Shown here in pieces: positions 690-16,776 of a stretch of 17,281 nt of DNA. Position numbers and translations under genes: made by a program. Location: positions 5,512-22,792 of the forward strand of contig CAZYEE010000024.1 in assembly GCA_964646355.1 (NCBI GenBank). Reading direction: 5' to 3'. Source of the DNA: an uncultured archaeon. Lineage in GTDB: Archaea > Asgardarchaeota > Lokiarchaeia > Helarchaeales > HEL-GB-B. Numbering within the stretch: position 1 is the stretch's first letter; each line of letters starts with the position of its first letter. The notes beneath the pieces were generated by a model, which saw only the letters and a program-made list of their open reading frames with translations, searched no databases and was not told the origin of the DNA.

Positions 690-1157
690 TTAAATATTGT
701 CTAAATCACCTAAGGCAGATTTTAAATCTTCTTCTTCATCGCTAAGAGCTTCTCCTTCTAATGGAGGTTGCTCTCCAAGAAATTCACTGAGAACTTTTTC
801 CAGTTCAGAGGAAGCTGATTTCATTACTAATCGAATCATACCGATATTTACATCTTTATCTGTAATGATAGATAGAACTCCCTGTCCACAAGATGCAGCA
901 AAAATTTTACCATCATCAAATTCAGAAGTAACAATATTCAGGTTTCCAATATCTAGGGACCGTCCTTGCTCTTCACTTGCACAGAAAACTGCACTTGCTA
1001 TGGCGCCTATGCCGTCAACATCAACTGGATAATAAGAGAATTTAGAAACATGAGCAATTGTGAGCCCAGTCCTATCAGCAAGTATTACTTTCTTTATACC
1101 AGGTTCACTTTTAATAATTCTTGCTAGAATTTTATCGAATGCCTTTAAATCCATCAT
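690..1157 (-). CDS. Roadblock/LC7 (MglB-like) domain protein with an acidic C-terminal tail
   Basis: The 155-aa ORF has the pattern GIKKVILADRTGLTIAHV ... IGAIASAVF ... NIVTSEFDDGKIFAASCGQGVLSIITD. This fits the alpha-beta-beta-alpha-beta-beta-beta-alpha Roadblock fold. The tail EGEALSDEEEDLKSALGDLDNI is strongly acidic. A GGTG Shine-Dalgarno-like element (complement of 1165-1168) lies upstream of the ATG. Confidence 0.8.
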   Translation of the reverse strand: MMDLKAFDKILARIIKSEPGIKKVILADRTGLTIAHVSKFSYYPVDVDGIGAIASAVFCASEEQGRSLDIGNLNIVTSEFDDGKIFAASCGQGVLSIITDKDVNIGMIRLVMKSASSELEKVLSEFLGEQPPLEGEALSDEEEDLKSALGDLDNI

Positions 1158-1411: not shown

Positions 1412-4400
1412 CTATTCTTCGACAGGTTTAAAATAGCCCTCTCTTGGCTGATATATTACTCCTCTTATTCTTAAATTATTTATTTCTTCCTCGATCTGAG
1501 TTTCTGGTATTCTAAGGCGAGCCGCTGCTTCTTTAATTTCATCGAGAGAAACAGCCTCTCCGTGTTTTTCCATAACAAGTTGTCGAATTAGACTATTAAG
1601 TTGATCGAGTCTTCTCCTACGGGATGTGGTGATACCTGTTTCAATAGCATCAATATCCGAAATTCCGGTTTCTTGATCGATACCGACTTGGCTTAATGAA
1701 AATCTCATCAATTGAATAACTGCTTGCGCATCTTCAGCGGTTACTTCTTCATGAAGTGCCATTTTTGCTCTTGCTTCAGCCAATCTTATAAGTGCTTCAA
1801 GATAACGCGCAGTAATTGGAACTGGAGTATCTGGATCGGCTCCAGCAGCCCGTGTTTGCAGATAAAATCGTTTTATTTCCTCAACCGCCTCTCTGGTCAT
1901 GCTTGGTTTACAATTCTTCCTTGCATAATATATGTAATTTTTAAGGAGATCATGACTAATTGGAGGTTCAGGAGGAGTTTCTTCTTGATTTAGTATAAAT
2001 TCTGCCATTCTTTCATCACGTGCTTGATCTGGCCGGTCTCGTATTAAGAAAATTAAATCAAAACGAGATAATATAGTTGGTGGAAGACGTTTAATATTTT
2101 CAGCAACAGTTTTATATTCATCATAACGTCCATAGTAAGGATTCGCAGCAGCTAGGATAGATGTTCTGGAATTTAAAGTAGTTATAATACCGGCTTTGGC
2201 GACGCTGATCGATAATTGTTCCATTGCTTCATGTATTGCGACCCTGTCTTCAGGCCGCATCTTATCAAACTCATCAATGGCGGCCAAACCACCATCGCTT
2301 AATACAAGCACACCAGCTTCAAGTGAGAGATTTCCGGTATCTTTATCTCTTATCACAGCAGCCGTATTATGGACTATAAATCCATTTGCAATGAAATTAT
2401 GCGATCCTGGAATAGTCAAATCATATACATAATGATCCTCGGATAAAAAGATCTCAATATCAGTAATCTCATCCCATAATATATCAGCTCTGGATATATG
2501 TTTTAAAATTTTATAAAATTCAAGATATTTTTCATGTTCTATTTTAGCATTCTTAATAATCTTGTTAATAAGATCCTTAATATCTGGTGCAAGATATGAG
2601 TCCATTTTTTCTAATATTTCGATTAATAGCTTGATGGAAATAATTCCTGAATCTTTTATATGATCAAATTGTTGTTTTAATTTATCAAAAAGAATTTTCT
2701 CTTTTAATGATTGTGATAATTCGTTCTTTGTATTAAATATTTTAGTCAATTCAATTTCAAAATTTTCCGGCAACCTTATTTTATGTCTTAAGAGATCCGG
2801 TCTAATATTTTTTAGTAAATGTCTAAGCATCTTTTTAGATATTCTCATAGAATTATTATCATTATTTTTTCGAAGATTTAAAGTACCAAACAAAACAGAG
2901 TTGTAATCATAGAAGTTTAGCAGTTTTTTTATTGAATTTAGGTCATATGGCATATTATCTTTTACGTTAAAATTAGAAAAATGGTTATATACTTCTTCTA
3001 GACTATTTTGAAATTTCCGTTTTTTATATTTACAGTTAAAATCAATAAAAATAGAAAAATTGAACAGATCCCTAGGTTCATTAATAACGAGGAATAAATT
3101 ATTTTTAATCGGACGAAGCGATTTTATAATCTTAGATAAGTTCATTAAATCCGAGTTATCTACAATCGAGGAAAATATGTTGAACTTACTTAGCGCGTTT
3201 TGAATAAACCTCAATTTGTTTTTATTTTCAGAAAAAAGGAATATACTAGGTATTGAGGTAGCATTAAGGGTCAAATCTGTATCATCAAAAAAATTTTTAT
3301 CATATAGGGATAAATTTTCACGGGATTCATGAGATATTTTATTATTAAACCATATATCTATTGGGCTCTCCTGATCATTCCTTATAACCCCCCCAGAATC
3401 AAAAACTCCTTTAAGAAAGCTTCGGAGTAATTTTTCAGGATAATAAAGAAATTCATAATATTTTGGAATTGAGCCTTTTTCTGATATTTCAAGGGGTTCA
3501 AATAATCCAAATTTGGATAAAATATGTGAAATAAAAGAAGAAATTACGTGGATTTTGATCTTATTTGATTGGGAACATTCTATGATTTCTAATTTAATCT
3601 TCAAATTTTTAAAGAAATGAATAAAATTCTTGATAATAGAATTGTCTATCTCAGATAATTTGAATTCAATGATAAATCCTGAGTTATTTTTAGTTAAAAT
3701 ATTTTCATTACCAAAAATTATTCCCATTATATAAAACCAGTGATCATTGAACTGTATTGGTAGATAAATTTTTTCAGCTCCTTCATTTTCCAATAAGAGT
3801 CTTTTTGGGAATTCTTTTAAGGAATTAATTTTTGATGAATTGCAGCAATTCAATAGTTCTTGTAAATGAAAATTTTTATTATTTTGATTTTTAATTTTAA
3901 TATAGTCATTAATCTTGAATATATTTGGTGAAAAATTCAGAATTTTTATTTTTTCTGGAAAATCTTTTAGAAAATCAATTATTAATGGTATATTTTTCTT
4001 ATTTCTAATTTTTAATTTCTTTGCAATAGCTATTTTATCATTAAATTTAAGAAAACTTGCACTTTTCCAACAGATATTAAAAAAATCATCATAACAAAGG
4101 ACACAAGTTTGAGGAGTTAATTTTATTTCTCTGCCCGTTTTAGTTGTAATTTTTATCATATATTTTGGGCTGGTAATTTTCCAAACTTTTTCGATATTCT
4201 GTTTTTTAATTTTTAAATTGTGAGAATATAGAATTTCGTTCCTTGAATTAACATTATTATAAACTATGTTAGTAAAATTCTGCTCATTGGTAATTAACAC
4301 ATCCGTTTGATTCGAAGTTTTAAACTCATTTTCGACAAACCGCTGGATTGATATAGGCCCAGTATCAAGGAAAAGTAGTGAATCACCTGCAACGCATAAG

Positions 4401-5500
4401 CCAGCTGCCGTTGTCCCTTTACCACTAGTATATATTCCTCTAGGAGCTATTTCTGCAATGCTCTTTAAAATTTGTGATTTACCAACTCCTGGATCACCTA
4501 CAAGGAGAATATGAATTTCTCCACGACGGACTGTACCATCGTTTCGTTGTCTTGATACACCTGAAAACAATTGTAATAATAATGCTTCTTTAATTTCATC
4601 CATACCATAAATAGAAGGAACGATAGACCTGATTAATTTACGGTAAATCCATGGGTCCTTTGCTAATTCTTTAATTTCCTCCTCTTGTTCTGGAGTAATT
4701 TCAAGGCTTTCGATTTCAACTTCATGTTTTTCAATATAATTAACGTCCAGAAACGTCCTAAATATTGTTAGTTTTCCCTGTTGAGTTGATTCTTGTTTAG
4801 CCTTAAGAATTCCAATTATAGTAACCCTATCTCCTGGCCTAGCAACGTCAACGATATCCTCAAGAAGATATCCATCAATAAATCTGGGCATTTGACCGGC
4901 AGGCAACTCTTCGGGTTTTTCTTGGATCCTGATTTTTTGCCAATCAATAAATGTGGACCTATCTTGTAATAGTTTGAAAGGACCTTTTCTATTACATTGC
5001 GGACAGACCAAAGGACGTGTAAACTCGTTATCTTCTTGATCAATGGAAATAATAGCATCATTACAGTTAAGGCATCTAAAGACACCCCGGATCATTAAAG
5101 GCGAAACTTTATTTACTCTTGTTAGAATACCACTTACTTGAATTAGTTTACCAATATGATTTGCTCTAATTTTACGAAGGTCAATTCTATTAATGGGTTC
5201 TAAATTTCTAAATCGTGCATGGAATTTTTCCACACTATTTGCGTATTCTTCGTTTATTATCCTAAGTCTATGCCTGATTGCCATAGATGCAAGATCAATA
5301 TAAAGTTCAGGGGCATTAAGAAGCCCTCTGGCAAGTTCGGCATCGAACCTAAGAAGATCATCATAATCAATAACTAAAGAGATGCTAGCATTTAATTCCA
5401 TCTGGCTTATCAAAATATCATATTTTCTATTTCCATTATCATCAATAAAATCGCTGTAAAACTGTTCAAATCTCCTTACAATTTCGGCTTGATCTTCCAT
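1412..5500 (-). CDS. mcm: MCM replicative helicase precursor, 1362 aa including a 677-aa intein; the spliced product is predicted to be 685 aa
   Basis: The N-terminal domain has a C4 zinc finger (CLNCN...CPQCN). The AAA+ core has Walker A GDPGVGKSQ, Walker B AAIDEFDKM, the motif ILAAANP and the arginine finger SRFDL. The C-terminus looks like a winged helix. An AGAGGT SD lies 8 nt upstream of the ATG. Confidence 0.95.
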   Translation of the reverse strand: MEDQAEIVRRFEQFYSDFIDDNGNRKYDILISQMELNASISLVIDYDDLLRFDAELARGLLNAPELYIDLASMAIRHRLRIINEEYANSVEKFHARFRNLEPINRIDLRKIRANHIGKLIQVSGILTRVNKVSPLMIRGVFRCLNCNDAIISIDQEDNEFTRPLVCPQCNRKGPFKLLQDRSTFIDWQKIRIQEKPEELPAGQMPRFIDGYLLEDIVDVARPGDRVTIIGILKAKQESTQQGKLTIFRTFLDVNYIEKHEVEIESLEITPEQEEEIKELAKDPWIYRKLIRSIVPSIYGMDEIKEALLLQLFSGVSRQRNDGTVRRGEIHILLVGDPGVGKSQILKSIAEIAPRGIYTSGKGTTAAGLCVAGDSLLFLDTGPISIQRFVENEFKTSNQTDVLITNEQNFTNIVYNNVNSRNEILYSHNLKIKKQNIEKVWKITSPKYMIKITTKTGREIKLTPQTCVLCYDDFFNICWKSASFLKFNDKIAIAKKLKIRNKKNIPLIIDFLKDFPEKIKILNFSPNIFKINDYIKIKNQNNKNFHLQELLNCCNSSKINSLKEFPKRLLLENEGAEKIYLPIQFNDHWFYIMGIIFGNENILTKNNSGFIIEFKLSEIDNSIIKNFIHFFKNLKIKLEIIECSQSNKIKIHVISSFISHILSKFGLFEPLEISEKGSIPKYYEFLYYPEKLLRSFLKGVFDSGGVIRNDQESPIDIWFNNKISHESRENLSLYDKNFFDDTDLTLNATSIPSIFLFSENKNKLRFIQNALSKFNIFSSIVDNSDLMNLSKIIKSLRPIKNNLFLVINEPRDLFNFSIFIDFNCKYKKRKFQNSLEEVYNHFSNFNVKDNMPYDLNSIKKLLNFYDYNSVLFGTLNLRKNNDNNSMRISKKMLRHLLKNIRPDLLRHKIRLPENFEIELTKIFNTKNELSQSLKEKILFDKLKQQFDHIKDSGIISIKLLIEILEKMDSYLAPDIKDLINKIIKNAKIEHEKYLEFYKILKHISRADILWDEITDIEIFLSEDHYVYDLTIPGSHNFIANGFIVHNTAAVIRDKDTGNLSLEAGVLVLSDGGLAAIDEFDKMRPEDRVAIHEAMEQLSISVAKAGIITTLNSRTSILAAANPYYGRYDEYKTVAENIKRLPPTILSRFDLIFLIRDRPDQARDERMAEFILNQEETPPEPPISHDLLKNYIYYARKNCKPSMTREAVEEIKRFYLQTRAAGADPDTPVPITARYLEALIRLAEARAKMALHEEVTAEDAQAVIQLMRFSLSQVGIDQETGISDIDAIETGITTSRRRRLDQLNSLIRQLVMEKHGEAVSLDEIKEAAARLRIPETQIEEEINNLRIRGVIYQPREGYFKPVEE
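2366..4396 (-). mobile_element. Intein (Hint domain plus a LAGLIDADG-type endonuclease-like domain) inserted in the MCM ATPase domain
   Basis: The N-extein ends ...GKGTTAAGL. The intein starts CVAGDSLLFLDTG (Cys codon 4394-4396). It ends with blocks F/G, DHYVYDLTIPGSHNFIANGFIVHN (Asn codon 2366-2368). The C-extein resumes TAAVIRDKDTG. The insert is 2031 nt and in frame. Two LAGLIDADG-like motifs lie at 3704-3736 (FYIMGIIFGNE) and 3389-3427 (LRSFLKGVFDSGG). Confidence 0.9.
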
Positions 5501-5710: not shown

Positions 5711-6337
5711 TTGAAAGAAAAGAATGTTAATTCGGATGAGAAAAAAAAAGAAATTTCGGTCAAATATGCTACTATTTTAATTAATCTATTTTTATTTCCA
5801 ACTTCCTATTTATTAATATTATTTTGTGAGTTTCAATTTATCATCACGAAAATCAAAGAACAACCATATGAAAGGATAGCTTTTGGAAATTATGTAATAT
5901 ATCCATCAGATATTTTTTTATTTTATACAATTTTGATAACATTAAGTATAATTTTTGTTACATTTGTTATTTTAAGAGAAATTATTAAATTAAAATATTT
6001 ATGCTGGAAAAAAATCTCAAATCTTAATTATTATTTAGTATACCTAGTCCTTTTTAGTGTCCTAAATCTCATTCACATTTTTCTTATAACAGGAAGGATC
6101 ACGGGATTTGGGATTTTTAGGACTTTTTTCGAAGATTACTATTTTTACTATTTTATAGCACTATTTGGACTGTTTTTTTTAATGTATTATTGTGTTATTT
6201 CATTAAATAGAGGAATATATGGAAAAAATAATATGAAATTACAAAAAAAGGTTCGAATATATACTAAATTCGGTTTTGTGTCTTGTGTAATATTCTCTGT
6301 AATGTATTTTGTTATGTCTATTGTTATTTTACTATGA
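5711..6337 (+). CDS. Hypothetical polytopic membrane protein (about 5 predicted TM helices)
   Basis: The 208-aa ORF has a Lys-rich N-terminus and five long hydrophobic stretches, for example ATILINLFLFPTSYLLILF, IFLFYTILITLSIIFVTFVIL and FGFVSCVIFSVMYFVMSIVILL. I recognise no family. The start must be non-ATG (TTG at 5711), because the first in-frame ATG falls only about 150 codons into the ORF. Confidence 0.5.
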   Translation: MKEKNVNSDEKKKEISVKYATILINLFLFPTSYLLILFCEFQFIITKIKEQPYERIAFGNYVIYPSDIFLFYTILITLSIIFVTFVILREIIKLKYLCWKKISNLNYYLVYLVLFSVLNLIHIFLITGRITGFGIFRTFFEDYYFYYFIALFGLFFLMYYCVISLNRGIYGKNNMKLQKKVRIYTKFGFVSCVIFSVMYFVMSIVILL

Positions 6338-6527: not shown

Positions 6528-6890
6528 TTAAGAATGATTTTGAGATGCAATCTGAATAAGTCCTGTATTTAACTGTTTTGCGAGGTTAGGGTCAATGTCA
6601 GGAATAATTTCGCGAATCTTATCGACCGTGCTATTTACTCCTAGATGTTGCAACTGTTTAAATTGTTCAAATTGAATAATTGCAACCATTTTTTTAGAAC
6701 TGGACCCGTTTTGGATAAATAATTTAAGTTTATCTTCGTAGGGTTCTACCCAAATTTTTACTCGCTCTTGTTCCTCTATTATTTCTTTAAATTTGCTTTT
6801 AAATTTTTCATCATCAAGAGTAAAAATCTCGTCATCTTCTTCTTCATCGTCCATCAATTCCTCGTCTATATAGTCGTTTTTGGGCCGCAC
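6528..6890 (-). CDS. Hypothetical small protein with a poly-acidic N-terminus
   Basis: The 120-aa ORF has the N-terminus DEELMDDEEEDDEIFTLDDE, followed by a mixed alpha/beta-looking region (VKIWVEPYEDKLKLFIQNG...). The start is GTG at 6890, with an alternative ATG 12 codons downstream. I recognise no family. Confidence 0.5.
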   Translation of the reverse strand: MRPKNDYIDEELMDDEEEDDEIFTLDDEKFKSKFKEIIEEQERVKIWVEPYEDKLKLFIQNGSSSKKMVAIIQFEQFKQLQHLGVNSTVDKIREIIPDIDPNLAKQLNTGLIQIASQNHS

Positions 6891-7267: not shown

Positions 7268-7432
7268 TCATTTTGGCGGGAATAATAATTTATAGGCTTC
7301 ATCATAGGTCAAATTAAAGTCTTTAGCCACCAGTTCTACAGCTGTTTTAAAATCATTACTTTTTAGATATTCATTGAATTTTATTAAGCATTTACCCCAT
7401 AAACTTTTATCTATAGATGAATTATTTTTCAT
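7268..7432 (-). CDS. Possible small ORF (54 aa), not in the supplied ORF track
   Basis: My own translation of the minus strand gives MKNNSSIDKSLWGKCLIKFNEYLKSNDFKTAVELVAKDFNLTYDEAYKLLFPPK followed by a stop. It has an ATG start and lies in an otherwise empty 940-bp gap. This stretch is the least AT-rich part of that gap. There is no homology evidence. Confidence 0.25.
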   Translation of the reverse strand: MKNNSSIDKSLWGKCLIKFNEYLKSNDFKTAVELVAKDFNLTYDEAYKLLFPPK

Positions 7433-7621: not shown

Positions 7622-7832
7622 CATAATTTTCAAAAAAAAAATTTAGAATTTAGTATATATAAGACCATTCATTATAAATAGAATGAGAAAAAATAAAAAA
7701 AATTCAAATACAAATTAAATTTAGATAAAGTAGAAAAGTTTTTGCTGATAAAAATTTAAAATAATAGGAATATATCTATAGCTTGAAAATATTTACTTAT
7801 CTTTTTAATGATAGACAAAACAAATAGTACTG

Positions 7833-8756
7833 GTGAAACAAATATTGAATAAAAAAGAAGTATTATTGCAAATAATAGAAAATCTTAAGGACCTAAACTT
7901 GAGTAACTTAATGCTAATTAAAACAGATGGCACTTTATTGGCGAATAATTTTCCTAAAAACGCAATAAACTACATAAAAAAAATTATAGAGAAATATAAG
8001 GGTATAAAAGTGAATAACTATGTAAGAGCAAATGTAGCAAATAATTTGAACCTAATATTATATAAGATAAGTAAAAATATTTTTCTTATAAGTTTAAGTA
8101 ATGAAAATGAACATAAATTAGTTAGAAGGTTTAAAGAAATCTCTCAAAAATATAATTATATTTTGTTTGAATTATTTAAGCCATCAATTCCAAAATCAGC
8201 ACCTATTAGATATAAGTATATTAAGTATATCGTTTATTCAAAAGCTGATAATTTAGGACCAAACCCGATTTCGTGGATTCCTGAATCAATTGATGAACAG
8301 GAGAGATTTGAAATCGCAGCAAAATCAATTTTAGTCTTAAGTGCAGGCTTTGATCAGCCTTCACGAAAAAAAATGGACCATATGACTTCTATAATTCCAT
8401 TTGTAAATTATGATTGTATTGGACTTGTTTATACATTTTCAATCTTTTCTCCGAGAGCAAGAGGAAATAGTTTTGATGCAACCATTACTTTATTGATTCC
8501 TCAAATTTATAAGAAATTGTTGCTTAATAAGCTTGATCAGGTAGAGATGGAGTTAAAAGAAGCGACAAAACAAATAACAGGTGGAAGGAATCCAAAATAT
8601 GTCTTGGAAGTATTAAGAGATAGTATTGAGCAGATAATGAGTATTCAGAAAATGAAACCTCAAAGTCAAACACTAGACAGCACATTAAAACAAATCATGA
8701 TATCCGAAATCAGAAAAATTCAAGAAAAAAGGCCCTATTCAACTCTTTTATATTAA
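7833..8756 (+). CDS. Hypothetical two-domain protein: an N-terminal Roadblock/LC7-like domain, a central longin-like (DENN-type longin) domain, and a C-terminal helical tail
   Basis: The ORF is 307 aa. Residues 1-115 (LLQIIENLKDLNLSNLMLIKTDGTLLANNFP ... NLNLILYKISKNIFLISLS ... LVRRFKEISQKY) fit a Roadblock-fold secondary-structure pattern. Residues about 125-235 (YIVYSKADNLGPNPISWIPES ... TSIIPFVNYDCIGLVYTFSIFSPRARGNSFDATITLLIPQ) fit a beta-beta-alpha-beta-beta-beta-alpha longin pattern. The last 70 aa or so are helical and polar. The start is GTG. The confidence given is for a real CDS; the domain calls are less certain. Confidence 0.6.
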   Translation: MKQILNKKEVLLQIIENLKDLNLSNLMLIKTDGTLLANNFPKNAINYIKKIIEKYKGIKVNNYVRANVANNLNLILYKISKNIFLISLSNENEHKLVRRFKEISQKYNYILFELFKPSIPKSAPIRYKYIKYIVYSKADNLGPNPISWIPESIDEQERFEIAAKSILVLSAGFDQPSRKKMDHMTSIIPFVNYDCIGLVYTFSIFSPRARGNSFDATITLLIPQIYKKLLLNKLDQVEMELKEATKQITGGRNPKYVLEVLRDSIEQIMSIQKMKPQSQTLDSTLKQIMISEIRKIQEKRPYSTLLY

Positions 8757-8785: not shown

Positions 8786-8793
8786 TTTATAAA
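8786..8793 (+). promoter_or_regulatory. Candidate TATA box (TTTATAAA) upstream of the GINS gene
   Basis: A perfect TTTATAAA lies only about 16-23 nt upstream of the GTG at 8809. This implies a leaderless mRNA, or that the true start is a few codons downstream (for example TTG at 8818). Confidence 0.3.
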
Positions 8794-8808
8794 TAATAAC
8801 TAAAAGAA

Positions 8809-9375
8809 GTGGAGCATTTGGATAATTTCATATTTAAATGGCAGAATAGGGAAGTTAAAGTTAAAATTCTTGAAGATTTACCTGAAATCAAGATGTTTAC
8901 CATTAGTATTGGACCATTTAAGAAGGGTGAAGAAACCAATATCCCTTATTGGATTGCAAAAATATTGAAAAAAGATAAAATAATTGATTTTTTAGAAGAA
9001 GTTGAATATGATGTAGAAGACCTACTTAAAGTTAAATGGAAAGAACAGGAGACCCCAAACATTCAAATTATTGGTAAAGAATTCTACGTAAAAACTAAGG
9101 AAACAATACTAAATTTAATTGATGAGCTCAAAGAAGAGGATAAATTCTCGATAAATTCACAAAAATTACAAAAAAAAGAACGAATTCAATCATTATTAAA
9201 AGATATATTTGCCAGAAGAATATATAAAATATTAAGAATAGCGACTCAAGGGCATGATCAGCCCAAATTTTTGAATAGTTTAACTGATGAGGAGGCGTTA
9301 CTCTATAAACACTTACGACAAATAATAAAAAATTGGCAGAACAATTTTGTGGAAATTGATAAAAAACAAACCTAA
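8809..9375 (+). CDS. gins23: GINS complex subunit, Gins23 type (Psf2/Psf3-like, with the B domain N-terminal to the A domain)
   Basis: The 188-aa ORF opens with a beta-rich domain, VKVKILEDLPEIKMFTISIGPFKKGEETNIPYWIAKILKKDKII. A helical domain follows (LLKDIFARRIYKILRIA ... LNSLTDEEALLYKHL). This parallels eukaryotic Psf2 as I recall it ([26 protein letters not shown] ... LVKDMWDTRIAKL). The exact start codon is uncertain; the ORF track uses GTG. Confidence 0.8.
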   Translation: MEHLDNFIFKWQNREVKVKILEDLPEIKMFTISIGPFKKGEETNIPYWIAKILKKDKIIDFLEEVEYDVEDLLKVKWKEQETPNIQIIGKEFYVKTKETILNLIDELKEEDKFSINSQKLQKKERIQSLLKDIFARRIYKILRIATQGHDQPKFLNSLTDEEALLYKHLRQIIKNWQNNFVEIDKKQT

Positions 9376-9478: not shown

Positions 9479-10273
9479 ATGATCGGAAAAGATACAAGGT
9501 TAAGACGTATTGGTAAGGAAAACAAGTTTTTGATAATACCAATGGATCATGGGACAACTGTGGGTCCATTACGCGGATTGTATAATATAGAAAAAACAAT
9601 AGCTGATGTTTCAGAATATGCTACTGCTATATTGCTCCATAAAGGCGTCATAAGAGCATTAAAAAATGTTCCAGATATTGGCATTATAATGCATTTATCA
9701 GCCAGTACGGTATTGGGCTCTGAACCAAATTGGAAAGTTAAGGTGGGTTCAGTCCAAGAAGCTGTTAGACTGGGCGTAGATGCAGTATCTATTCATATCA
9801 ACTTGGGAAATATTAGAGAACCTTATATGCTTCAGCACATTGGCGAAATTTCTGAACAATGCGATCTTTGGCAGATCCCTTTAATTAGCATGATTTATCC
9901 AAGAGGAGAAAACATCAAGGATCCATATGATATGAAGACTTTATCTCACGTGGTAAGGTTGGGTGCGGAATTAGGCTCAGATATCATTAAAACAAATTAT
10001 ACAGGAGATCCAAAAACTTTCGAGAAAGTTGTTGAATCGAGTTTTAAACCTGTTATAGTGGCAGGTGGCCCTAAAACTAAAACTGAACAAGAATTTCTTG
10101 AGATGATAAAGGGAGCTATGGATGCGGGAGCTGCAGGAGTTGCAATTGGCAGAAATGTATTTTCAAGCGATGATCCAGGTAAAATGGTAAAAGCGATTTC
10201 CTCAATTATGTATGAAAATTATTCTGTAAATGAGGCTTTGGAGATCCTTAAGAGTAAGAAAGATGAAAATTAA
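9479..10273 (+). CDS. aroA': 2-amino-3,7-dideoxy-D-threo-hept-6-ulosonate (ADH) synthase; class I aldolase family; archaeal shikimate pathway step 1
   Basis: The 264-aa sequence has LIIPMDHGTTVGPLRGL, AVSIHINLG, MIYPRGE, IIKTNYTGD, VIVAGGPKT and AGAAGVAIGRNVF. These closely parallel the MJ0400-type ADH synthase / DhnA aldolase family. The gene sits directly upstream of DHQ synthase II. Confidence 0.9.
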   Translation: MIGKDTRLRRIGKENKFLIIPMDHGTTVGPLRGLYNIEKTIADVSEYATAILLHKGVIRALKNVPDIGIIMHLSASTVLGSEPNWKVKVGSVQEAVRLGVDAVSIHINLGNIREPYMLQHIGEISEQCDLWQIPLISMIYPRGENIKDPYDMKTLSHVVRLGAELGSDIIKTNYTGDPKTFEKVVESSFKPVIVAGGPKTKTEQEFLEMIKGAMDAGAAGVAIGRNVFSSDDPGKMVKAISSIMYENYSVNEALEILKSKKDEN

Positions 10274-10296
10274 ATATTTAAATAAGTGTATTGAAT

Positions 10297-11367
10297 ATGA
10301 AAAAAATAATTCTAAAGTTATTAGGAAATTGGAATGATATTAAAGAAATTGCCAGCGAAGCTGTTATTGAAGGGCTTAATAATTTTATAGTTGCCCCTGA
10401 TAATATAGACAAAATTAGGAATTTCGGAAATGTTCATATTTATTCCTATTCAGAGCAAAATAATCCCGATTTTTTGATAAAAAAGATAACAAATACGGAT
10501 AAACTGGGCGATATTGGTCATTTTAAATTTGGTTTTGAGATTTCAGTATTGGACAAGAAGGATGAAAATTTAGTAATAAAATCCTCGGAATTAAGGCCTA
10601 AGTTCATAATTATTCAAGCAAAAGATTGGGTAGTGATACCATTAGAGAATCTTATTGCTAATTTACATAAAAAAGATGTAGAATTATATGCCGAAGTAAA
10701 TACTATTGATGAAATCAAGCTGTCTTTAGAAATATTAGAACTGGGCACTGATGGAGTCGTTTATACACCGAAGTCTGCTGGAGAATTAAAGGAAATAAAG
10801 GGATTTCTTGCTAAAGAGTTGTCGCTTGAACTTACCACAGCAAAAATAGTTGAGAAAAAGGAGGTCGGGTCAGGTGATCGGGTCTGCATTGATACATGTT
10901 CTTTATTAAAGTTTGGAGAAGGTATGCTTGTTGGTTCGCAATCTAGAGGTTTATTTTTGATCCATGCAGAAACTATAGAAACCGAATTTGTATCTTCAAG
11001 GCCTTTTCGAGTAAATGCAGGCTCTGTATCATCCTATATTCTCATGCCCAACGGTAAGACTCAATATTTATCAGAAATTGAGGCGGGTACTGAAGTATTA
11101 ATTGTAGGTGCTGATGGAAAATGTAGAACAGCAGTTGTAGGGCGATCAAAGATTGAAAAACGACCTTTAATGCTAATAAAAGCTAAAATAAATGAGGATA
11201 TCATCAAGACTATTGTACAAAATGCTGAAACTATCCGCTTGGTCTTAAAAAATGGAGAACCGATTTCAGTTGCCAGAATTAAGGAAGGCGATGAGGTAAT
11301 CGTTTATTATCAAAAAGGTGGACGTCATTTTGGGACTTTAATAGATGAATCAATCATTGAAAAATGA
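10297..11367 (+). CDS. aroB': 3-dehydroquinate synthase II (archaeal type, MJ1249 family)
   Basis: The sequence has GDRVCIDTCSLLKFGEGMLVGSQSRGLFLIHAETIETEFVSSRPFRVNAGSVSSYI, which is characteristic of DHQS-II. The ATG at 10297 is preferred over the TTG at 10291 used by the ORF track. Confidence 0.9.
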   Translation: MKKIILKLLGNWNDIKEIASEAVIEGLNNFIVAPDNIDKIRNFGNVHIYSYSEQNNPDFLIKKITNTDKLGDIGHFKFGFEISVLDKKDENLVIKSSELRPKFIIIQAKDWVVIPLENLIANLHKKDVELYAEVNTIDEIKLSLEILELGTDGVVYTPKSAGELKEIKGFLAKELSLELTTAKIVEKKEVGSGDRVCIDTCSLLKFGEGMLVGSQSRGLFLIHAETIETEFVSSRPFRVNAGSVSSYILMPNGKTQYLSEIEAGTEVLIVGADGKCRTAVVGRSKIEKRPLMLIKAKINEDIIKTIVQNAETIRLVLKNGEPISVARIKEGDEVIVYYQKGGRHFGTLIDESIIEK

Positions 11368-12068
11368 TTAAAATGATATGCGTATCTATTGCTAATAGCA
11401 ATATTGAAGATATGTTCAAGAATTCTAAAAAAGCAATTGGTTTAGGTGCAAATTATATCGAAATCCGGGTTGATTATTTGGAAAACTTATCTTTAAAATC
11501 ATTAAATGGTTTAGCTAAAATCATATCTTTACCAGTCCCCATTATTTTAACATGTAGAAAAAAGGACGAAGGAGGAAAAGCCTCACTCGACGAGAATTCT
11601 AGATTGGAAATATTGGACGCATTGATTAATTTTAAACCTTCATATCTTGATTTAGAATATAATATGGACAAGAATATTTTGAATAGTTTGATAAAAAAAT
11701 GCCATGAAAATGGAGTAAAGGTAATATTATCTTATCACGATTTTAAAGGAACACCAGAGCCCAGTAAAGCTAACTCTATTATAAATTCCATGAAAAACCT
11801 AAACCCCAATGTCATTAAAGTTATTTTTACGGCAAACACGATATATGATAATAATACCATTTTTGAAATACTGAAAAATCATACAAATGAAGATTTAGAA
11901 ATAGTCTCATTCTGTATGGGCGATAAAGGAATAATTTCAAGAGTTTTAAGCCCTTTCTACGGCGCATTATTTACTTTCGCCTCCCTGGATATTCAGACAG
12001 CTCCAGGACAAATATCTTTAATTGAAATGTTAAAGGTTCATGAGATAATTGAAAAATATATTTGTTAA
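11364..12068 (+). CDS. aroD: 3-dehydroquinate dehydratase, type I
   Basis: ICVSI ... YIEIRVDYL ... ILTCRKKDEGG ... YLDLEY ... LSYHDF ... IKVIFTA ... SFCMGDKGIISRV fits type I DHQase. The gene has a 4-nt ATGA overlap with aroB'. Confidence 0.85.
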   Translation: MIKMICVSIANSNIEDMFKNSKKAIGLGANYIEIRVDYLENLSLKSLNGLAKIISLPVPIILTCRKKDEGGKASLDENSRLEILDALINFKPSYLDLEYNMDKNILNSLIKKCHENGVKVILSYHDFKGTPEPSKANSIINSMKNLNPNVIKVIFTANTIYDNNTIFEILKNHTNEDLEIVSFCMGDKGIISRVLSPFYGALFTFASLDIQTAPGQISLIEMLKVHEIIEKYIC

Positions 12069-12130
12069 ATAAAGAAACATGTTTGTTATGTAAATGTAGT
12101 CAATAAATAAATCAAAATTATTACTATTAT

Positions 12131-12135
12131 GGTGG
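12131..12135 (+). promoter_or_regulatory. SD-like GGTGG upstream of the aroE TTG start
   Basis: The sequence tatGGTGGtcaaTTG supports the non-ATG start at 12140. It lies in the only sizeable intergenic gap of the operon (71 nt, 12069-12139). Confidence 0.3.
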
Positions 12136-12139
12136 TCAA

Positions 12140-13036
12140 TTGCTTCATATTAATATCAATGGCTCCACTAAACTTGTTATTTTAATTGGAGACCCAGTAT
12201 CACATTCATTATCACCAAGAATGCATACTGCTGCTTTTCAAAAGATAGGATTTAATGCGATTTATTTAGCTTGTAGAGTCAAAAAAGATAACCTAAAAGA
12301 AGCAATCAATTCAATTAAAGCGTTAGAAATAGTCGGTGCAAATATTACCATTCCCCATAAAGTAGAGACCATCAAATATATTGATAAAATAGACCCAATA
12401 GCCAAGGAAATAGGGGCAATAAATACTATTATTAATCGAAATGGTATTCTATATGCCGTTAATACGGATGGAATTGGTGCTATTAGGTCATTAAAAGAGG
12501 CAGGAATTGAATTAAAAGGCTGCAACGTTTTGATCCTTGGGTCTGGTGGTGCTTCAAGGGCTATTTCTTTTCACCTATTAAACGAAATTAATCATTTATT
12601 TATAACGAACATCAGGGAAAAATCCTTATCAAAATTGACAACAGACCTAGAAAAAAAACATGCTGGCAAAATTACCAAGTTTTTGTATAATAAAGACAAG
12701 CTGAAAGAATATTTAAAAAAATGCGATCTTCTTATTAATTGTACACCCGTTGGTATGTATCCAAATATTCATGAAAGTATGGTGCCGGAGGAATTTCTAA
12801 GAGAGGATTTACCTGTATTCGATATAATTTATAACCCCATCGAAACGAAACTCCTAAAAGACGCAAAAAAGGTGGGCGCCAGAATTATTTACGGATATAA
12901 AATGTTATTATATCAAGGTGTTGAAGGATTTGAGCTATGGACTGGAAAAAAAGCACCAGTTGAATTAATGGAAAAAATATTAATTGATGAGCTATTAAAA
13001 AACGACAACAATAACATAAACAATAAAAAGGGTTAG
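12140..13036 (+). CDS. aroE: Shikimate 5-dehydrogenase
   Basis: GDPVSHSLSPRMHTAAF, NITIPHK, AINTI, NTDGIG and the Rossmann motif GSGGASRA are all present. The start is TTG, and there is no in-frame ATG nearby. Confidence 0.9.
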   Translation: MLHININGSTKLVILIGDPVSHSLSPRMHTAAFQKIGFNAIYLACRVKKDNLKEAINSIKALEIVGANITIPHKVETIKYIDKIDPIAKEIGAINTIINRNGILYAVNTDGIGAIRSLKEAGIELKGCNVLILGSGGASRAISFHLLNEINHLFITNIREKSLSKLTTDLEKKHAGKITKFLYNKDKLKEYLKKCDLLINCTPVGMYPNIHESMVPEEFLREDLPVFDIIYNPIETKLLKDAKKVGARIIYGYKMLLYQGVEGFELWTGKKAPVELMEKILIDELLKNDNNNINNKKG

Positions 13037-13040
13037 TGGA

Positions 13041-13580
13041 ATGAAAAAAACTAATATTGCATTAATTGGTTTTATGGGAACAGGTAAGACCGTAGTTGGT
13101 AAATTAGTGGCTAAAAAATTGAAAAAAGAATTTATTGAAATGGATGACTATATTGAGAAATTGGCGGGTAAATCAATCCCAAAAATTTTCAAAGAGGATG
13201 GAGAATTAATATTTAGAGAGCTGGAGATTAAAGCATGTAAAGAATTATCTAAAAAATCAAACTCCGTGCTTTCATGTGGTGGGGGAATAATACTTAATAA
13301 AATAAATTTAGATTATTTAAGACCCAGTTCGGTTATAATATGTTTAGATGCAAGTCCTAAAGTAATTTACAAAAGGACTGTCATGGTAAATAAGAATAAA
13401 CGACCCTTATTAGCAAATTCGAACCCTCTAAAATCTATAATCAATTTATTAAAATATAGGGCCCCGCTTTATAAACGTGCAACAGAATACCATATAAATA
13501 CTAACAAGCTGACCCCAGATCAAGTGGCAGATAAGGTAATCAAAATATATCAAAAAGTTTTAGAAAATGATACAAAATGA
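13041..13580 (+). CDS. aroK: Shikimate kinase, P-loop NMP-kinase (bacterial AroK/AroL) type
   Basis: The sequence has Walker A GFMGTGKTVVG, plus EMDD, GELIFRELE, SCGGG and NKRPLL. It is not a GHMP-kinase-type sequence. Confidence 0.9.
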   Translation: MKKTNIALIGFMGTGKTVVGKLVAKKLKKEFIEMDDYIEKLAGKSIPKIFKEDGELIFRELEIKACKELSKKSNSVLSCGGGIILNKINLDYLRPSSVIICLDASPKVIYKRTVMVNKNKRPLLANSNPLKSIINLLKYRAPLYKRATEYHINTNKLTPDQVADKVIKIYQKVLENDTK

Positions 13581-14869
13581 AGATTAAAATATATAAATCT
13601 GAACAATTAAAAGGTACAATATCAGCTCCACCTTCTAAGAGTTATACACACAGAGCTATAATAATGTCATCTTTAGCTGATGGAAAAAGTATTATTAAAT
13701 TACCGCTACTTAGTGATGATACTATGTCTTCCATTAATGCATGTATGGCACTCGGAGCTCTGATAAAAATAAATCCATCTGCACTGGAAATTAGGGGGTC
13801 ATTTCCATTTAAACCAAACTCCGACATTATAGATGTAGGAAATTCGGGGACTACCATGCGGATAATTACTGCATTGTGCGGCTATTATCCCGGTAAAATA
13901 ACAATTACTGGTGATGAATCAATACAAAAACGTCCAATGGGGCCTTTAATTAAAGCATTAAAAAAGCTTGGAGTGCAAATAATTTCAAAGAATGAAAATG
14001 ATTGTCCTCCCATTATCGTAAAAGGCCCAACATTAATTGGGGGCGAAACATCAATACCTGGAGATGTAAGCTCTCAATATATAACTGGACTGCTTGTATC
14101 ATGTCCATTGGCTGAAAAAAATTCCGTGATAAATATTACAACTCCATTAAAATCAGCTCCATATATACATATCACACTAGAATGCTTGGACAAATATAGA
14201 ATTAAAGTGGACCATAAATCTAATTTGAGAAAATTTGTTATACAAGGAAATCAGGAATATAAACCAATAAACTTGACAATACCGGGAGATTTCTCCTCTT
14301 CCTCTTTTATGCTTGCACTTGCAGCTATCACTGGCTCAAAGATTACCATGACCAATTTAAATATAGATACGTACCAAGGAGATGTTCAGATTATTGATAT
14401 TTTAAAACAAATGGGCTGCGAAGTCCAAGTAAATAAAGTTGATAATTCAATTACTGTAGTTGGACCAGATAAATTAAATGCGATTGAAATAAATATGGGT
14501 AATATACCCGATCTCTTCCCAGTATTATGTATCTTGGGGACTTTCGCACATGGCATAACAAAATTGTACGGTGCAAGACATTTGCGTTTTAAAGAAAGTG
14601 ACAGAATACACGCCCTGAGTAATGAATTAACAAAATTGGGTGTGAAAATTATTGAAAAAGAAGATGGTGTTGAAATAAAAGGGCCCAATGCTATTAAATT
14701 TAATGAGATCGATGTATATAATGATCATAGAATCGCAATGGCGCTTTCATTATTGGGTGTTAAAATGGAATATTTAATAATCCCTAACATTGAAATATGC
14801 AAAGTTTCATATCCTAATTTTATTGAACATTTAAGATCTCTTGGAGTTGATTTCGAGGTGCTTGAATAA
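13577..14869 (+). CDS. aroA: 3-phosphoshikimate 1-carboxyvinyltransferase (EPSP synthase)
   Basis: PPSKSYTHRA, GNSGTTMR, QKRPMGPL, DVSSQY, RFKESDR and DHRIAMA are present. The gene has a 4-nt overlap with aroK. Confidence 0.95.
   Translation: MKIKIYKSEQLKGTISAPPSKSYTHRAIIMSSLADGKSIIKLPLLSDDTMSSINACMALGALIKINPSALEIRGSFPFKPNSDIIDVGNSGTTMRIITALCGYYPGKITITGDESIQKRPMGPLIKALKKLGVQIISKNENDCPPIIVKGPTLIGGETSIPGDVSSQYITGLLVSCPLAEKNSVINITTPLKSAPYIHITLECLDKYRIKVDHKSNLRKFVIQGNQEYKPINLTIPGDFSSSSFMLALAAITGSKITMTNLNIDTYQGDVQIIDILKQMGCEVQVNKVDNSITVVGPDKLNAIEINMGNIPDLFPVLCILGTFAHGITKLYGARHLRFKESDRIHALSNELTKLGVKIIEKEDGVEIKGPNAIKFNEIDVYNDHRIAMALSLLGVKMEYLIIPNIEICKVSYPNFIEHLRSLGVDFEVLE
14855..14860 (+). promoter_or_regulatory. 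Shine-Dalgarno element for aroC, lying inside the aroA 3' end
   Basis: GAGGTG lies 9 nt upstream of the ATG at 14870. The aroA stop and the aroC start are directly adjacent (TAA ATG). Confidence 0.5.
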
Positions 14870-15970
14870 ATGGCGGCTGGAAATATTTTTGGTACCGCAT
14901 ATAAAGTAGTTTCTTTTGGAGAAAGTCATGGTAAATGCGTTGGCTGCGTTATCGATGGCTGTCCAGCCGGTTTAAAAATATCTGAAGAGTTTATTCAAAA
15001 TGAATTGAATAGAAGGATGCCCGGTAAAGGAGATTTTTCAACCACTAGAAGTGAGAAAGATAAATTCGAAATTTTATCTGGTGTATTTAACGGAATGACT
15101 ACGGGCGCTCCTATTTGTTTATTAGTCTGGAATAGAGATGTAGACTCTTCTTCATATGAAAAAATGAGGTTCATTCCTCGACCCGGACACGCTGACTTTA
15201 CAGCTCATAAAAAATATTCAGGTTATAACGATTATCGAGGCGGTGGCAGATTCTCTGGTAGAATAACTATTTCAATAGTCTTAGCTGGAGCAATAGCCAA
15301 AATTATTTTGAAAGAAAAATTGGGTATTGAGATATTTGCTTATACAAAGACCATAGATGGCATCGAATCAAATATTCCTATACCGAATGATTTTAATAAT
15401 ATAAAAAGAGACCCTGCCACGGGTTGTATCGATCCAGAACTTACAGCAAAAGCCCATAAAATATTGGAGGATCTAAAAAAAGATGGCGATTCTACAGGAG
15501 GAATCATTGAATGCATAGCGAAAAATGTTCCAACTGGTTTAGGCGAACCATTTTTCGATACAATTGAAGGCGATGTCAGCAAGATAATGTTTGCTATCCC
15601 TGCAATTAAGGGCGTCGAATTTGGATCCGGGTTTAAAGGTTCGAGTATGAGAGGCTCTGAAAATAATGACCAATTTATTGTTAAAGAAAATAAAATCCTT
15701 ACCGAAACTAATAATGCAGGTGGAATATTAGGCGGAATATCCACTGGAATGCCAATTGTATTGAGAGTTGCAGTAAAACCTACACCTTCTATTCGAAAGA
15801 CCCAAAAATCGGTTGACATTAAAAAAATGGAACCAATCGAAATTCAAGTAAAGGGCAGACATGATGTTCTTATTGTTCCTCGTGCTATTCCTGTAGTTGA
15901 ATGCGCATTGGCTATTGTTCTTCTTGACCACGCCCTAAGATCTAATATTATTCAAAATGTATTAAGGTGA
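14870..15970 (+). CDS. aroC: Chorismate synthase
   Basis: SFGESHG, DGCPAG, RPGHADF, GGGRFSGR, GGISTG and KGRHD are the canonical chorismate synthase signatures. Confidence 0.95.
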   Translation: MAAGNIFGTAYKVVSFGESHGKCVGCVIDGCPAGLKISEEFIQNELNRRMPGKGDFSTTRSEKDKFEILSGVFNGMTTGAPICLLVWNRDVDSSSYEKMRFIPRPGHADFTAHKKYSGYNDYRGGGRFSGRITISIVLAGAIAKIILKEKLGIEIFAYTKTIDGIESNIPIPNDFNNIKRDPATGCIDPELTAKAHKILEDLKKDGDSTGGIIECIAKNVPTGLGEPFFDTIEGDVSKIMFAIPAIKGVEFGSGFKGSSMRGSENNDQFIVKENKILTETNNAGGILGGISTGMPIVLRVAVKPTPSIRKTQKSVDIKKMEPIEIQVKGRHDVLIVPRAIPVVECALAIVLLDHALRSNIIQNVLR

Positions 15971-16776
15971 TGTATTTGTACAAAACAATTATTATTGGTG
16001 GAACAGGTGGAATGGGTAGATTAATTGCACAGACCTTTAAAGATGAATTGGATATTTATATAAGTAGTAGAGATACAAATAAAGCTAAAAAGGTGGCTAA
16101 CGAATTAAATGTAAATTATTGCTCCGAAAAAGATTATTATGATGCTGATATTATTCTTATTTCAGTACCAATGGACAAAACACTCGAAAACTGTACTAAA
16201 GTAATTCCCCTTATGAAGGACGGAGCATTACTAATGGAAATCTCCTCTGTAAAAACTGGAATAGTCGATCAACTTAAAATCCCTGATAATATTGAATATA
16301 TAAGCGTTCATCCATTATTCGGACCTATGGGGAGCTTCTTGGATCAAAATGTCGTATTAATTCCCGTTAAAACTAAAAAATGGTTGAATATTATAAAAAA
16401 ATTGCTGGAAAAAAAGGGGAGCCAAGTTTCTATAGTTTCCTATAAAGAACATGATAAGATTATGGGTAATGTTCAAGTTATACATCATTTTTCATACCTA
16501 TGTTTGGGTGTATATCTATCCGAAAATTTCGTACCAAAAGAATTCTTTACCAGATCTTATAAAAAAACTGTAGACTCCTTCAAAAATTATGAACAAAACC
16601 TTAAAATCATGATTGAAATACAAAAATTAAATCCTTATTCAAGAATGGTCCGTAAAAAATTTGCCGAACTTGTTAATGAATTGGCAGAATTACCAGAAGA
16701 ATTATTTGAGAAAAAGATAATTGAAAGTCTTTCAAAGTTATATGCTCATTATACTAACGAATATCTACCAGATTAA
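15970..16776 (+). CDS. tyrA: Prephenate dehydrogenase (TyrA family), with no fused chorismate mutase or ACT domain
   Basis: The N-terminal Rossmann motif is IIIGGTGGMG. The motifs SVHPLFGP and HDKIMGNVQVIHH are typical of TyrA. The start is ambiguous among GTG 15967, ATG 15970 (overlapping the aroC TGA) and TTG 15976. An AGGTGA at 15965-15970 could act as the SD for the TTG. Confidence 0.8.
   Translation: MYLYKTIIIGGTGGMGRLIAQTFKDELDIYISSRDTNKAKKVANELNVNYCSEKDYYDADIILISVPMDKTLENCTKVIPLMKDGALLMEISSVKTGIVDQLKIPDNIEYISVHPLFGPMGSFLDQNVVLIPVKTKKWLNIIKKLLEKKGSQVSIVSYKEHDKIMGNVQVIHHFSYLCLGVYLSENFVPKEFFTRSYKKTVDSFKNYEQNLKIMIEIQKLNPYSRMVRKKFAELVNELAELPEELFEKKIIESLSKLYAHYTNEYLPD

Follow-up and report, generated by a model that had tools for sequence, protein, structure and literature searches.

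The RL gene and the domains of its product

The stretch of DNA analysed here, 17,281 nucleotides of contig CAZYEE010000024.1 from an uncultured Helarchaeales archaeon (hereafter the window), carries on its forward strand a gene for a protein in which a Roadblock domain is followed by a longin domain (Roadblock-Longin, RL; 7833..8756). The window is 99.98% identical to a 21.7-kb metagenome contig in ENA, referred to below as the parent contig. As listed, the open reading frame (ORF) begins at a GTG codon at position 7833 and encodes 307 aa, and its translation agrees with the motifs quoted in an earlier interpretation of this DNA made without database searches (the sequence-only reading). Eight proteins from metagenomes or metagenome-assembled genomes (MAGs), the named ones belonging to Helarchaeota and Lokiarchaeota MAGs, are homologous to the RL protein along their entire length, with identities of 55-64%; in the alignment of the window protein with its close homologues, 84 columns do not vary. 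Full-length conservation at this level in eight proteins shows that the ORF does not exist by chance and is a genuine conserved gene.

The translation start was examined in relation to orthologous loci. The GC content of the window is about 30%, and drops to 19% in the intergenic stretch upstream of the RL gene. In the loci L002, L004 and L005 a GGTG motif lies 8-11 nt upstream of an RL start with the sequence TTG GAT AAA AAA, and the window contains GGTGA, a putative Shine-Dalgarno (SD)-like motif (7831..7835, +), 9 nt upstream of a TTG codon at position 7845. Because the same GGTG-spacer-TTG pattern is present in the three orthologous loci, the true start of the gene is probably TTG 7845, which would result in a protein of 303 aa (MNKKEVLL...). 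The ORFs listed for RL and for the adjacent GINS gene both probably begin too far upstream. No transmembrane segment was detected in the RL protein, whose maximum Kyte-Doolittle mean over 19 residues was 1.47, on longin strands β3-β4. The product is a soluble Asgard archaeal protein of about 303-307 aa.

The full-length AlphaFold2 (AF2) model, obtained from a nine-sequence alignment (mean pLDDT 78, pTM 0.66), contains a Roadblock domain at residues 7-115 (7851..8177, +) with topology α-β-β-α-β-β-β-α, an assignment also reached through Foldseek and profile matches. This domain is followed by an interdomain linker at residues 116-131 (8178..8225, +), of low model confidence (pLDDT <50 at residues 120-124) and with a sequence that is gapped and variable in alignments A1 and A3. 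The longin domain, of the FLCN/NPRL2 type according to models, Foldseek and profiles, extends over residues 132-249 (8226..8579, +) in the order β-β-α-β-β-β-α-α, and reached a pLDDT of 89.7 when it was modelled on its own. Both arrangements agree with how Tran et al. 2024 (PMC10933270) define the two folds. The sequence-only reading had proposed a Roadblock domain and then a longin domain in a single chain, with residues 1-115 and about 125-235 following the respective patterns. The AF2 topology, Foldseek and the profiles against solved structures bear out this proposal, and place the two folds at residues 7-115 and 132-249. Its designation of the second domain as a DENN-type longin was right for the longin part, equivalent to uDENN, but not for the remainder of such a protein, as core DENN and dDENN are missing. 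In the AF2 model only two helices and a tail of 7 residues follow the longin domain, with no core DENN, and no DENN-family Pfam entry gave a significant match (DENND11 appeared in one relative at E 0.1).

The two C-terminal helices (residues 254-270 and 283-299; 8592..8729, +), defined from the AF2 model and alignment A3, are kept across the RL family. In this alignment the last helix follows the pattern LKxxMxxxIxxL, with M289 nearly invariant. The region had been described in the sequence-only reading as a polar helical tail of about 70 aa with no transmembrane segment. The absence of such a segment was correct, but the tail comprises about 58 residues rather than 70, because the longin helices extend to residue 249, and it is a conserved part of the family and not a loose appendage.

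The protein ends in the peptide PYSTLLY (residues 301-307; 8733..8753, +), identified in alignments A1 and A3 and in the list of C-termini. Its PYST portion is invariant in the group formed by the window protein and its close relatives (the window subfamily), and the peptide is missing from other RL proteins. The window subfamily also has an extra insertion of a few residues in the α1-β3 loop in comparison with the main RL group. PYSTLLY was considered as a PCNA-interacting (PIP) box and rejected, as Q297-E-K-R-P-Y-S-T does not fit the pattern Qxx[ILM]xx[FY][FY].

An Asgard protein family with a folliculin-type longin

Analysis of the window RL protein against Pfam gave no match at E<=0.1 and nothing even at E<=10. 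Comparison of the full-length model with the PDB through Foldseek resulted in 8yqg as the top match (E 3.5e-8), an entry titled 'Dimeric structure of the Longin domain from a Lokiarchaeota archaeon Roadblock-Longin protein'. The chains 8yql_A and 8yqk_A were matched with TM-target values of 0.84-0.86 and root-mean-square deviations (rmsd) of 2.4-2.5 Å; both entries are titled as the Roadblock domain of a 'Lokiarchaeota archaeon Roadblock-Longin protein', and 8YQG, 8YQK and 8YQL were all released on 2025-03-26. The next matches of the Roadblock half were MglB, Roadblock proteins from Thorarchaeota and MK-D1, LAMTORs and the C-terminal domains of Rag proteins. The model was aligned to the 157-residue chain 8yqg_B over 159 columns, a length exceeding that of a core longin, which suggests that the alignment covers the extra C-terminal helices as well, Foldseek giving no residue ranges. 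When the longin domain was modelled separately, 8yqg was again at the top (TM-query 0.81).

Sequence profiles were also compared with the PDB sequences. The close-homologue profile A1 matched 8yqg at E 3.3e-9 and 8yqk only at E 0.05. With broader profiles, 8yqg was reached at E 2e-32 by the 41-sequence family longin profile A2 in HMMER, and 8yqk at E 7e-29 by the 26-sequence family Roadblock profile A5, in which the window sequence stands first. FLCN and NPRL2 were not reached in this way, the HMMER search of PDB sequences with the longin profile giving only 8yqg. None of the 26 Roadblock halves matched Pfam Robl_LC7 (PF03259) at E<=1, although the fold match in Foldseek is clear, and no sequence-level match to MAPKK1_Int (PF08923) was found for the RL Roadblock half. 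The sequence-only reading had suggested separate profile searches of the two halves and a Foldseek search with a predicted structure: in the former both domains matched the solved RL structures at the E values of A2 and A5, and in the latter both folds were recovered. From the top Foldseek matches and the profile matches to 8yqg and 8yqk it follows that the window protein is a member of the Asgard RL family.

When 1.84 billion cluster representatives were searched exhaustively with a profile, 100 proteins were found at E<=1e-3, many of them of 270-330 aa with both domains and the C-terminal helices colinear. The alignment of 31 full-length RL members is colinear in the order Roadblock-linker-longin. 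Within this family the window protein belongs to a separate divergent branch: the window subfamily is 17-28% identical to the RL main group and 37% identical to its closest outlier, P0010. Among GTDB representative genomes, the patterns derived from A1 found no relative and those from A6 found three loci, and a metagenome scan added three further loci of the window subfamily. A word-indexed protein search with the 31-sequence profile returned only already known members among the matches listed. Organism names were available for few of the clusters, and were those of Promethearchaeota and of one contig labelled 'Deferrimicrobium'.

The RL protein of 8YQK, 8YQL and 8YQG has, like the window protein, a Roadblock domain followed by a longin domain and C-terminal helices in about 270-310 aa, but the identity between the two is only about 14-22%, and both the PYSTLLY C-terminus and the α1-β3 loop insertion are additions of the window subfamily. 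The architecture and the structures of both domains are already in the PDB, so this type of protein is not undescribed; no paper describing the three entries was found in the literature searched.

The type of longin domain was then derived from its structural neighbours and its invariant residues. In the Foldseek search with the longin domain, 8yqg was followed by NPRL2 (a GATOR1 subunit), yeast Npr2, FLCN and Lst4 at ranks 3-9 and 20-30. C9orf72-SMCR8 appeared further down, the SNARE longin Ykt6 scored worse, and TRAPP longins were not among the top 50 matches. Only four columns are invariant in 41 diverged longin domains, G142, P143, R210 and G211, with A209 nearly so; the same four, together with G33, F202 and E238, are invariant in 31 of 31 full-length RL proteins. 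G142-P143 constitute a GP motif at the start of longin strand β2 (8256..8261, +), recognised in alignments and models and, weakly, by hhalign. The A209-R210-G211 motif lies in the β4-β5 loop (8457..8465, +; alignments A2 and A3), where R210 is a candidate arginine finger with a putative catalytic role. A GP motif at β2 beside an arginine finger has been described as specific to FLCN, NPRL2, SMCR8 and C9orf72 (PMC12290439), and the pair has also been noted in Asgard 'FLCN/SMCR8-type' longins (PMC12290439, Traffic 2025).

Pfam Folliculin (PF11704) was the only family that appeared recurrently, in 7 of 9 close homologues and 23 of 41 family longins (best E 2.4e-6), with matches that cover the β4-loop-β5 segment including the arginine. 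Only a few relatives exceed its gathering score of 23.3 bits (e.g., P0027 with 24.5 and P0036 with 27.1), and the window protein gave no match to it even at E<=10. The family longin profile was aligned by hhalign with the human proteins FLCN and NPRL2, whose sequences as used were identical to the PDB chains, and with a profile of NPRL2. They placed the A-R-G of the family on L-A-R164-G of FLCN (P 0.004, probability 8.5%) and its GP on the GP of NPRL2 (P 0.003-0.013), both weakly.

The likeness to FLCN, C9orf72 and SMCR8 put forward in the sequence-only reading is upheld by the Folliculin matches, by the NPRL2 and FLCN folds and by the identification of its 'LGP' with the GP motif; on the other hand, the motif pair fits FLCN, NPRL2 and SMCR8 and not C9orf72, which is not known to have an arginine finger. 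Like FLCN, NPRL2 and SMCR8, the window protein has the longin fold and the GP at β2, and the arginine in its β4-β5 loop is a candidate counterpart of FLCN R164, NPRL2 R78 and SMCR8 R147. It differs from FLCN and SMCR8 in having no C-terminal DENN, from NPRL2 in having no NPRL2-specific C-terminal domain, and from all of them in that a Roadblock domain precedes the longin; moreover, it stays below the Pfam threshold, and its GAP (GTPase-activating protein) likeness is known here from sequence and models. As judged from these two sources, the longin half is of the FLCN/NPRL2/SMCR8 type, with no core DENN.

Other systems resemble the RL protein in part. MglB acts as a single-domain homodimer. The fold of the N-terminal half is common to MglB, LAMTOR (Ragulator) and the C-terminal Roadblocks of Rag proteins (Foldseek E 3e-4 to 4e-3), but the window Roadblock is fused to a longin and has no Pfam Robl_LC7 or MAPKK1_Int match. 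Mon1-Ccz1 and Fuzzy-Inturned also contain tandem longin or Roadblock-like domains in each chain, with full-length Foldseek E values of 3e-5 to 4e-4. These tri-longin proteins, however, have three domains, longin first, and form obligate heterodimers for which no GP/Arg pair is reported, whereas the window RL protein has two domains, Roadblock first, and is matched to the tri-longin guanine nucleotide exchange factors (GEFs) with TM 0.2-0.27 and rmsd of about 17 Å.

GTPase fusions and gene neighbourhoods

Twenty non-RL proteins sampled from the RL-profile matches were scanned against Pfam. In 12 of them the same longin was located directly N-terminal to a small GTPase domain, of the Gtr1/RagA/Arf-like type in P0025, P0033 and P0035 and of the Ras/Rab-like type in P0036, P0044, P0055, P0058, P0061, P0073, P0084, P0091 and P0108. 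Longin-GTPase and longin-GTPase-Roadblock fusions in Asgard archaea have been noted earlier (PMC10933270; 10.1101/2020.10.19.343400). They carry a GP(-ARG) longin like that of the window protein, were recovered with RL-profile E values of 1e-17 to 1e-4 and belong to the same organisms, but they contain the GTPase in cis. Because the window protein lacks a G domain, RL would have to act in trans on any GTPase.

Seven distinct loci of the main RL group were compared. In six of them (L008/9, L013, L015, L016, L017 and L018) at least one small GTPase gene was found within 6 kb of RL; the remaining one, L014, has none within this distance. Altogether, the fusions and these neighbourhoods are the best evidence that this longin type may work on small GTPases. 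As stated in the sequence-only reading, the window lacks a small GTPase gene, and so does the 21.7-kb parent contig.

Several of the main-group loci have further features in common. Genes for Arf/Gtr1_RagA-like GTPases lie 1-3 genes from RL in L008/L009, L013 and L015. In L013-L015 and L008/L009 a protein of about 880-1000 aa is encoded next to RL, divergently upstream, with faint MIT/TPR matches in L013 and L015 and none in L014. A RACo-like protein (Fer2 + RACo_C_ter) is encoded directly downstream of RL in L013-L015, and these three loci have the order large protein, RL, RACo-like protein. The neighbourhood may be a conserved module of Asgard archaea that has so far escaped recognition. An MIT-interacting motif was considered for the last helix of the main-group RL proteins, but this helix does not match the MIM1 pattern, and the MIT matches in the neighbouring protein are only faint.

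The surroundings of the window subfamily, with GINS, MCM and shikimate genes, differ from the GTPase, RACo-like and MIT/TPR genes found around other RL genes. Downstream of RL lies a GINS23-like gene (8809..9375, +; Pfam Sld5, PSF2_N and Gins51_C). The sequence-only reading correctly placed RL 52 nt upstream of gins23 on the same strand when the ORFs are taken as listed; the GINS start is probably TTG 8818 (MDNFIFKWQ), which is preceded by an SD-like GGAG and would make the gap 61 nt. RL is followed by gins23 on the same strand in the window (L001) and in L002/L003/L010, L004 and L005. In L006/L007 an opposite-strand PALP gene is located between RL and GINS, with GINS and MCM still following. 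The conservation of the gene pair, which the sequence-only reading had proposed to check, therefore holds for L001-L005 and L010 but not for L006, where one gene intervenes. The shikimate operon, functionally unrelated to RL and GINS, belongs to the same block in all of these loci.

A 54-aa ORF (MKNNSSIDKSLWGKCLIKFNEYLKSNDFKTAVELVAKDFNLTYDEAYKLLFPPK; 7268..7432, -) is divergent from the RL gene. Of the seven distinct subfamily loci whose sequence extends upstream of RL, six were found by tblastn to have it. It is present in L002/L003/L010, L005, L011, L012 and the distant L006/L007 (51% identity), is missing only in L004, and is a better conserved neighbour of RL than GINS. Its product, for which no Pfam family match was obtained, may function together with RL or as a small regulator. 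Within the RL-GINS gap lie T-runs and, some 25 nt before the probable start of GINS, a TATA-like TTTATAAATA (8787-8796), and in L002 and L005 runs of T6-T7 directly follow the RL stop; these elements would be compatible with termination and a separate gins23 promoter. Since the shikimate operon and the 54-aa ORF are kept too, the position of RL beside gins23 most likely reflects a conserved syntenic block with local inversions and not a common function.

Other genes of the window are described here for completeness. On the reverse strand, beside MCM, a canonical Roadblock/MP1-like protein of 155 aa is encoded at 690..1157 (-; MAPKK1_Int E 1e-8, Robl_LC7 E 2.5e-8), and the gene occupies the same position in L002 and L005. 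Two Roadblock-superfamily genes thus flank the MCM-GINS region. The MCM gene (1412..5500, -) encodes 1362 aa, with an intein of about 625 residues in the P-loop domain (residues ~421-1045) that bears a faint LAGLIDADG trace; the orthologue in L002 has 1680 aa and apparently two inteins, and that in L005 685 aa and none. Between MCM and RL there are two genes with no Pfam assignment. One (5711..6337, +) encodes a 208-aa protein that by eye looks like a polytopic membrane protein, and a 199-aa gene is found at its position in L005, the likeness consisting of size and position alone. The other (6528..6890, -) encodes an acidic conserved protein (113-120 aa) with orthologues in L002 and L005. A complete aromatic amino-acid operon follows GINS (9479..16776, +), in the order DeoC-type aldolase, DHQ synthase II (archaeal route), DHQase I, shikimate dehydrogenase, SKI-type shikimate kinase (PF01202), EPSP synthase, chorismate synthase and prephenate dehydrogenase. 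Archaeal shikimate kinases are usually of the GHMP type, so the SKI-type enzyme is unusual. The contig of L006/L007, DATKTP010000117.1, is labelled at NCBI with the bacterial name 'Candidatus Deferrimicrobium sp.'; it is probably mis-binned, because it carries an archaeal MCM gene (with intein), GINS and RL.

Proposed function, alternatives and significance

Fold, family membership and motif invariance were established in this analysis. On this basis, together with the fusions and neighbourhoods of its relatives and by analogy with the eukaryotic proteins, the RL protein is a probable GTPase regulator, and we lean towards a trans-acting GAP as its most likely activity. Roadblock and longin modules in general form dimers. 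RL would dimerise via its Roadblock and longin domains, as its homologues suggest (the 8yqg longin is titled dimeric). The dimer would then dock a Rag/Arf-like or Rab-like GTPase encoded elsewhere in the genome, the kind of partner suggested by the fusions and neighbourhoods of its relatives. By analogy, R210, backed by the GP motif, would enter the nucleotide pocket and stimulate GTP hydrolysis.

Several observations weigh against a GAP role. The alignments by hhalign to FLCN and NPRL2 reached only 3-11% probability with partial coverage, although the motifs are in the right register. The link to Folliculin is transitive via relatives, as the window protein itself has no Pfam match at E<=10. 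The crystallised RL longin (8yqg) has E-P-E in place of the A-R-G of the family; beside it, P0028, a relative whose Roadblock domain is about 70% identical, retains A-R-G, and a few further relatives lack the arginine (e.g., P0011, P0031 and P0072). No GTPase gene lies within 6 kb of RL in any locus of the window subfamily; in L007, exceptionally, an Arf/Ras-type gene is situated at the edge of the locus, about 7.5 kb upstream of RL. Finally, no biochemical data for any member of the RL family were found in the literature searched. Because the crystallised member lacks the arginine, not every RL protein can be catalytic, and the family probably holds catalytic and non-catalytic forms. A parallel with FLCN/FNIP, NPRL2/NPRL3 and SMCR8/C9orf72 is a speculation by analogy.

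The main alternative is that RL is a non-catalytic platform, scaffold, tether or GEF, in the manner of Ragulator, the TRAPP longins or Mon1-Ccz1, with a structural or binding role for the arginine and the GP motif. Most Roadblock and longin dimers are indeed platforms or GEFs and not GAPs (PMC10933270, PMC12290439), the full model also matches Mon1-Ccz1 and Fuzzy-Inturned at E 3e-5 to 4e-4, and the arginine is absent both from the solved RL member and from many GP-containing longin-GTPase fusions. However, R210-G211 has remained invariant in 41 domains and 31 RL proteins despite drift to 20-30% identity, and the top eukaryotic fold matches are the GAP subunits NPRL2/Npr2 and FLCN, with Ykt6 worse and TRAPP outside the top 50. 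Likewise, the tri-longin matches, at TM ~0.2-0.27 and rmsd ~17 Å, correspond to tandem domains and not to a common assembly. We regard such a role as possible but less likely than that of a GAP. That the ORF is spurious, or the fold resemblance a chance one in AT-rich sequence, might have been suspected from the lack of a Pfam match to the window protein itself and from the ease with which long K-, N- and I-rich ORFs arise in a genome of ~30% GC. This idea has a negligible probability and is already refuted by the conservation and profile results: identity to the homologues is 55-64% over the full length, 84 columns are invariant, 100 cluster representatives were found at E<=1e-3, the structure models are confident, and the profile matches to two crystal structures are strong.

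A different alternative concerns the subfamily only: RL might be linked to the replisome, working with GINS and MCM (e.g., by transmitting a GTPase or nutrient signal to CMG assembly) and being co-transcribed with gins23. In the window/L001, L002/L003/L010, L004 and L005, gins23 immediately follows RL on the same strand, the distant L006 (RL 37% identical) keeps GINS and MCM 1-2 genes away, and MCM or a Rad51/DHH protein is encoded on the other side of RL. Furthermore, the SD-like GGAG before the probable GINS start would be compatible with a polycistronic mRNA, and the subfamily has an invariant C-terminal peptide of its own. Nevertheless, the unrelated shikimate operon is kept in the same block at every locus, which points to synteny and not to function. 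In addition, the opposite-strand PALP gene parts RL from GINS in L006, the gap contains T-runs and the TATA-like TTTATAAATA (with T6-T7 after the RL stop in L002 and L005), PYSTLLY is not a canonical PIP box, and other RL genes are found in GTPase and not in replication neighbourhoods. Such an association is improbable. Its more specific form, a subfamily dedicated to connecting the archaeal CMG replisome with a Rag-like GTPase or a nutrient signal, appears slightly less probable still. The features that would speak for it, namely PYSTLLY, the divergent 54-aa gene and the proximity of gins23 and mcm through at least three local rearrangements, are equally explained by block synteny. If it were true, DNA replication in Asgard archaea would be tied directly to a GAP module like those of folliculin and GATOR1, and growth-control signalling would have a forerunner among prokaryotes.

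The eukaryotic complexes by which Rag, Arf and Rab GTPases are switched are built from Roadblock and longin modules, and Asgard archaea are where the prokaryotic precursors of this machinery are sought. The RL architecture and the domain structures were already known from the PDB, and Asgard longins of the FLCN type with GP and arginine finger had been published; as a genomic finding alone, the RL gene is thus confirmatory rather than surprising, and the sequence-only reading was essentially right but not new. What is new is a divergent subfamily of RL proteins, set apart by the invariant C-terminus PYSTLLY and by its gene neighbourhood, the invariance of the arginine and GP in the aligned RL proteins, yet with the arginine missing from the crystallised one, and the fusion and neighbourhood statistics that tie this longin type to GTPases. 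Most of the RL family, unlike the crystallised member, keeps the GP and arginine pair of the folliculin, GATOR1 and C9orf72-SMCR8 GAPs. If the GAP activity were confirmed, longin-type GAP catalysis would be older than eukaryotes.

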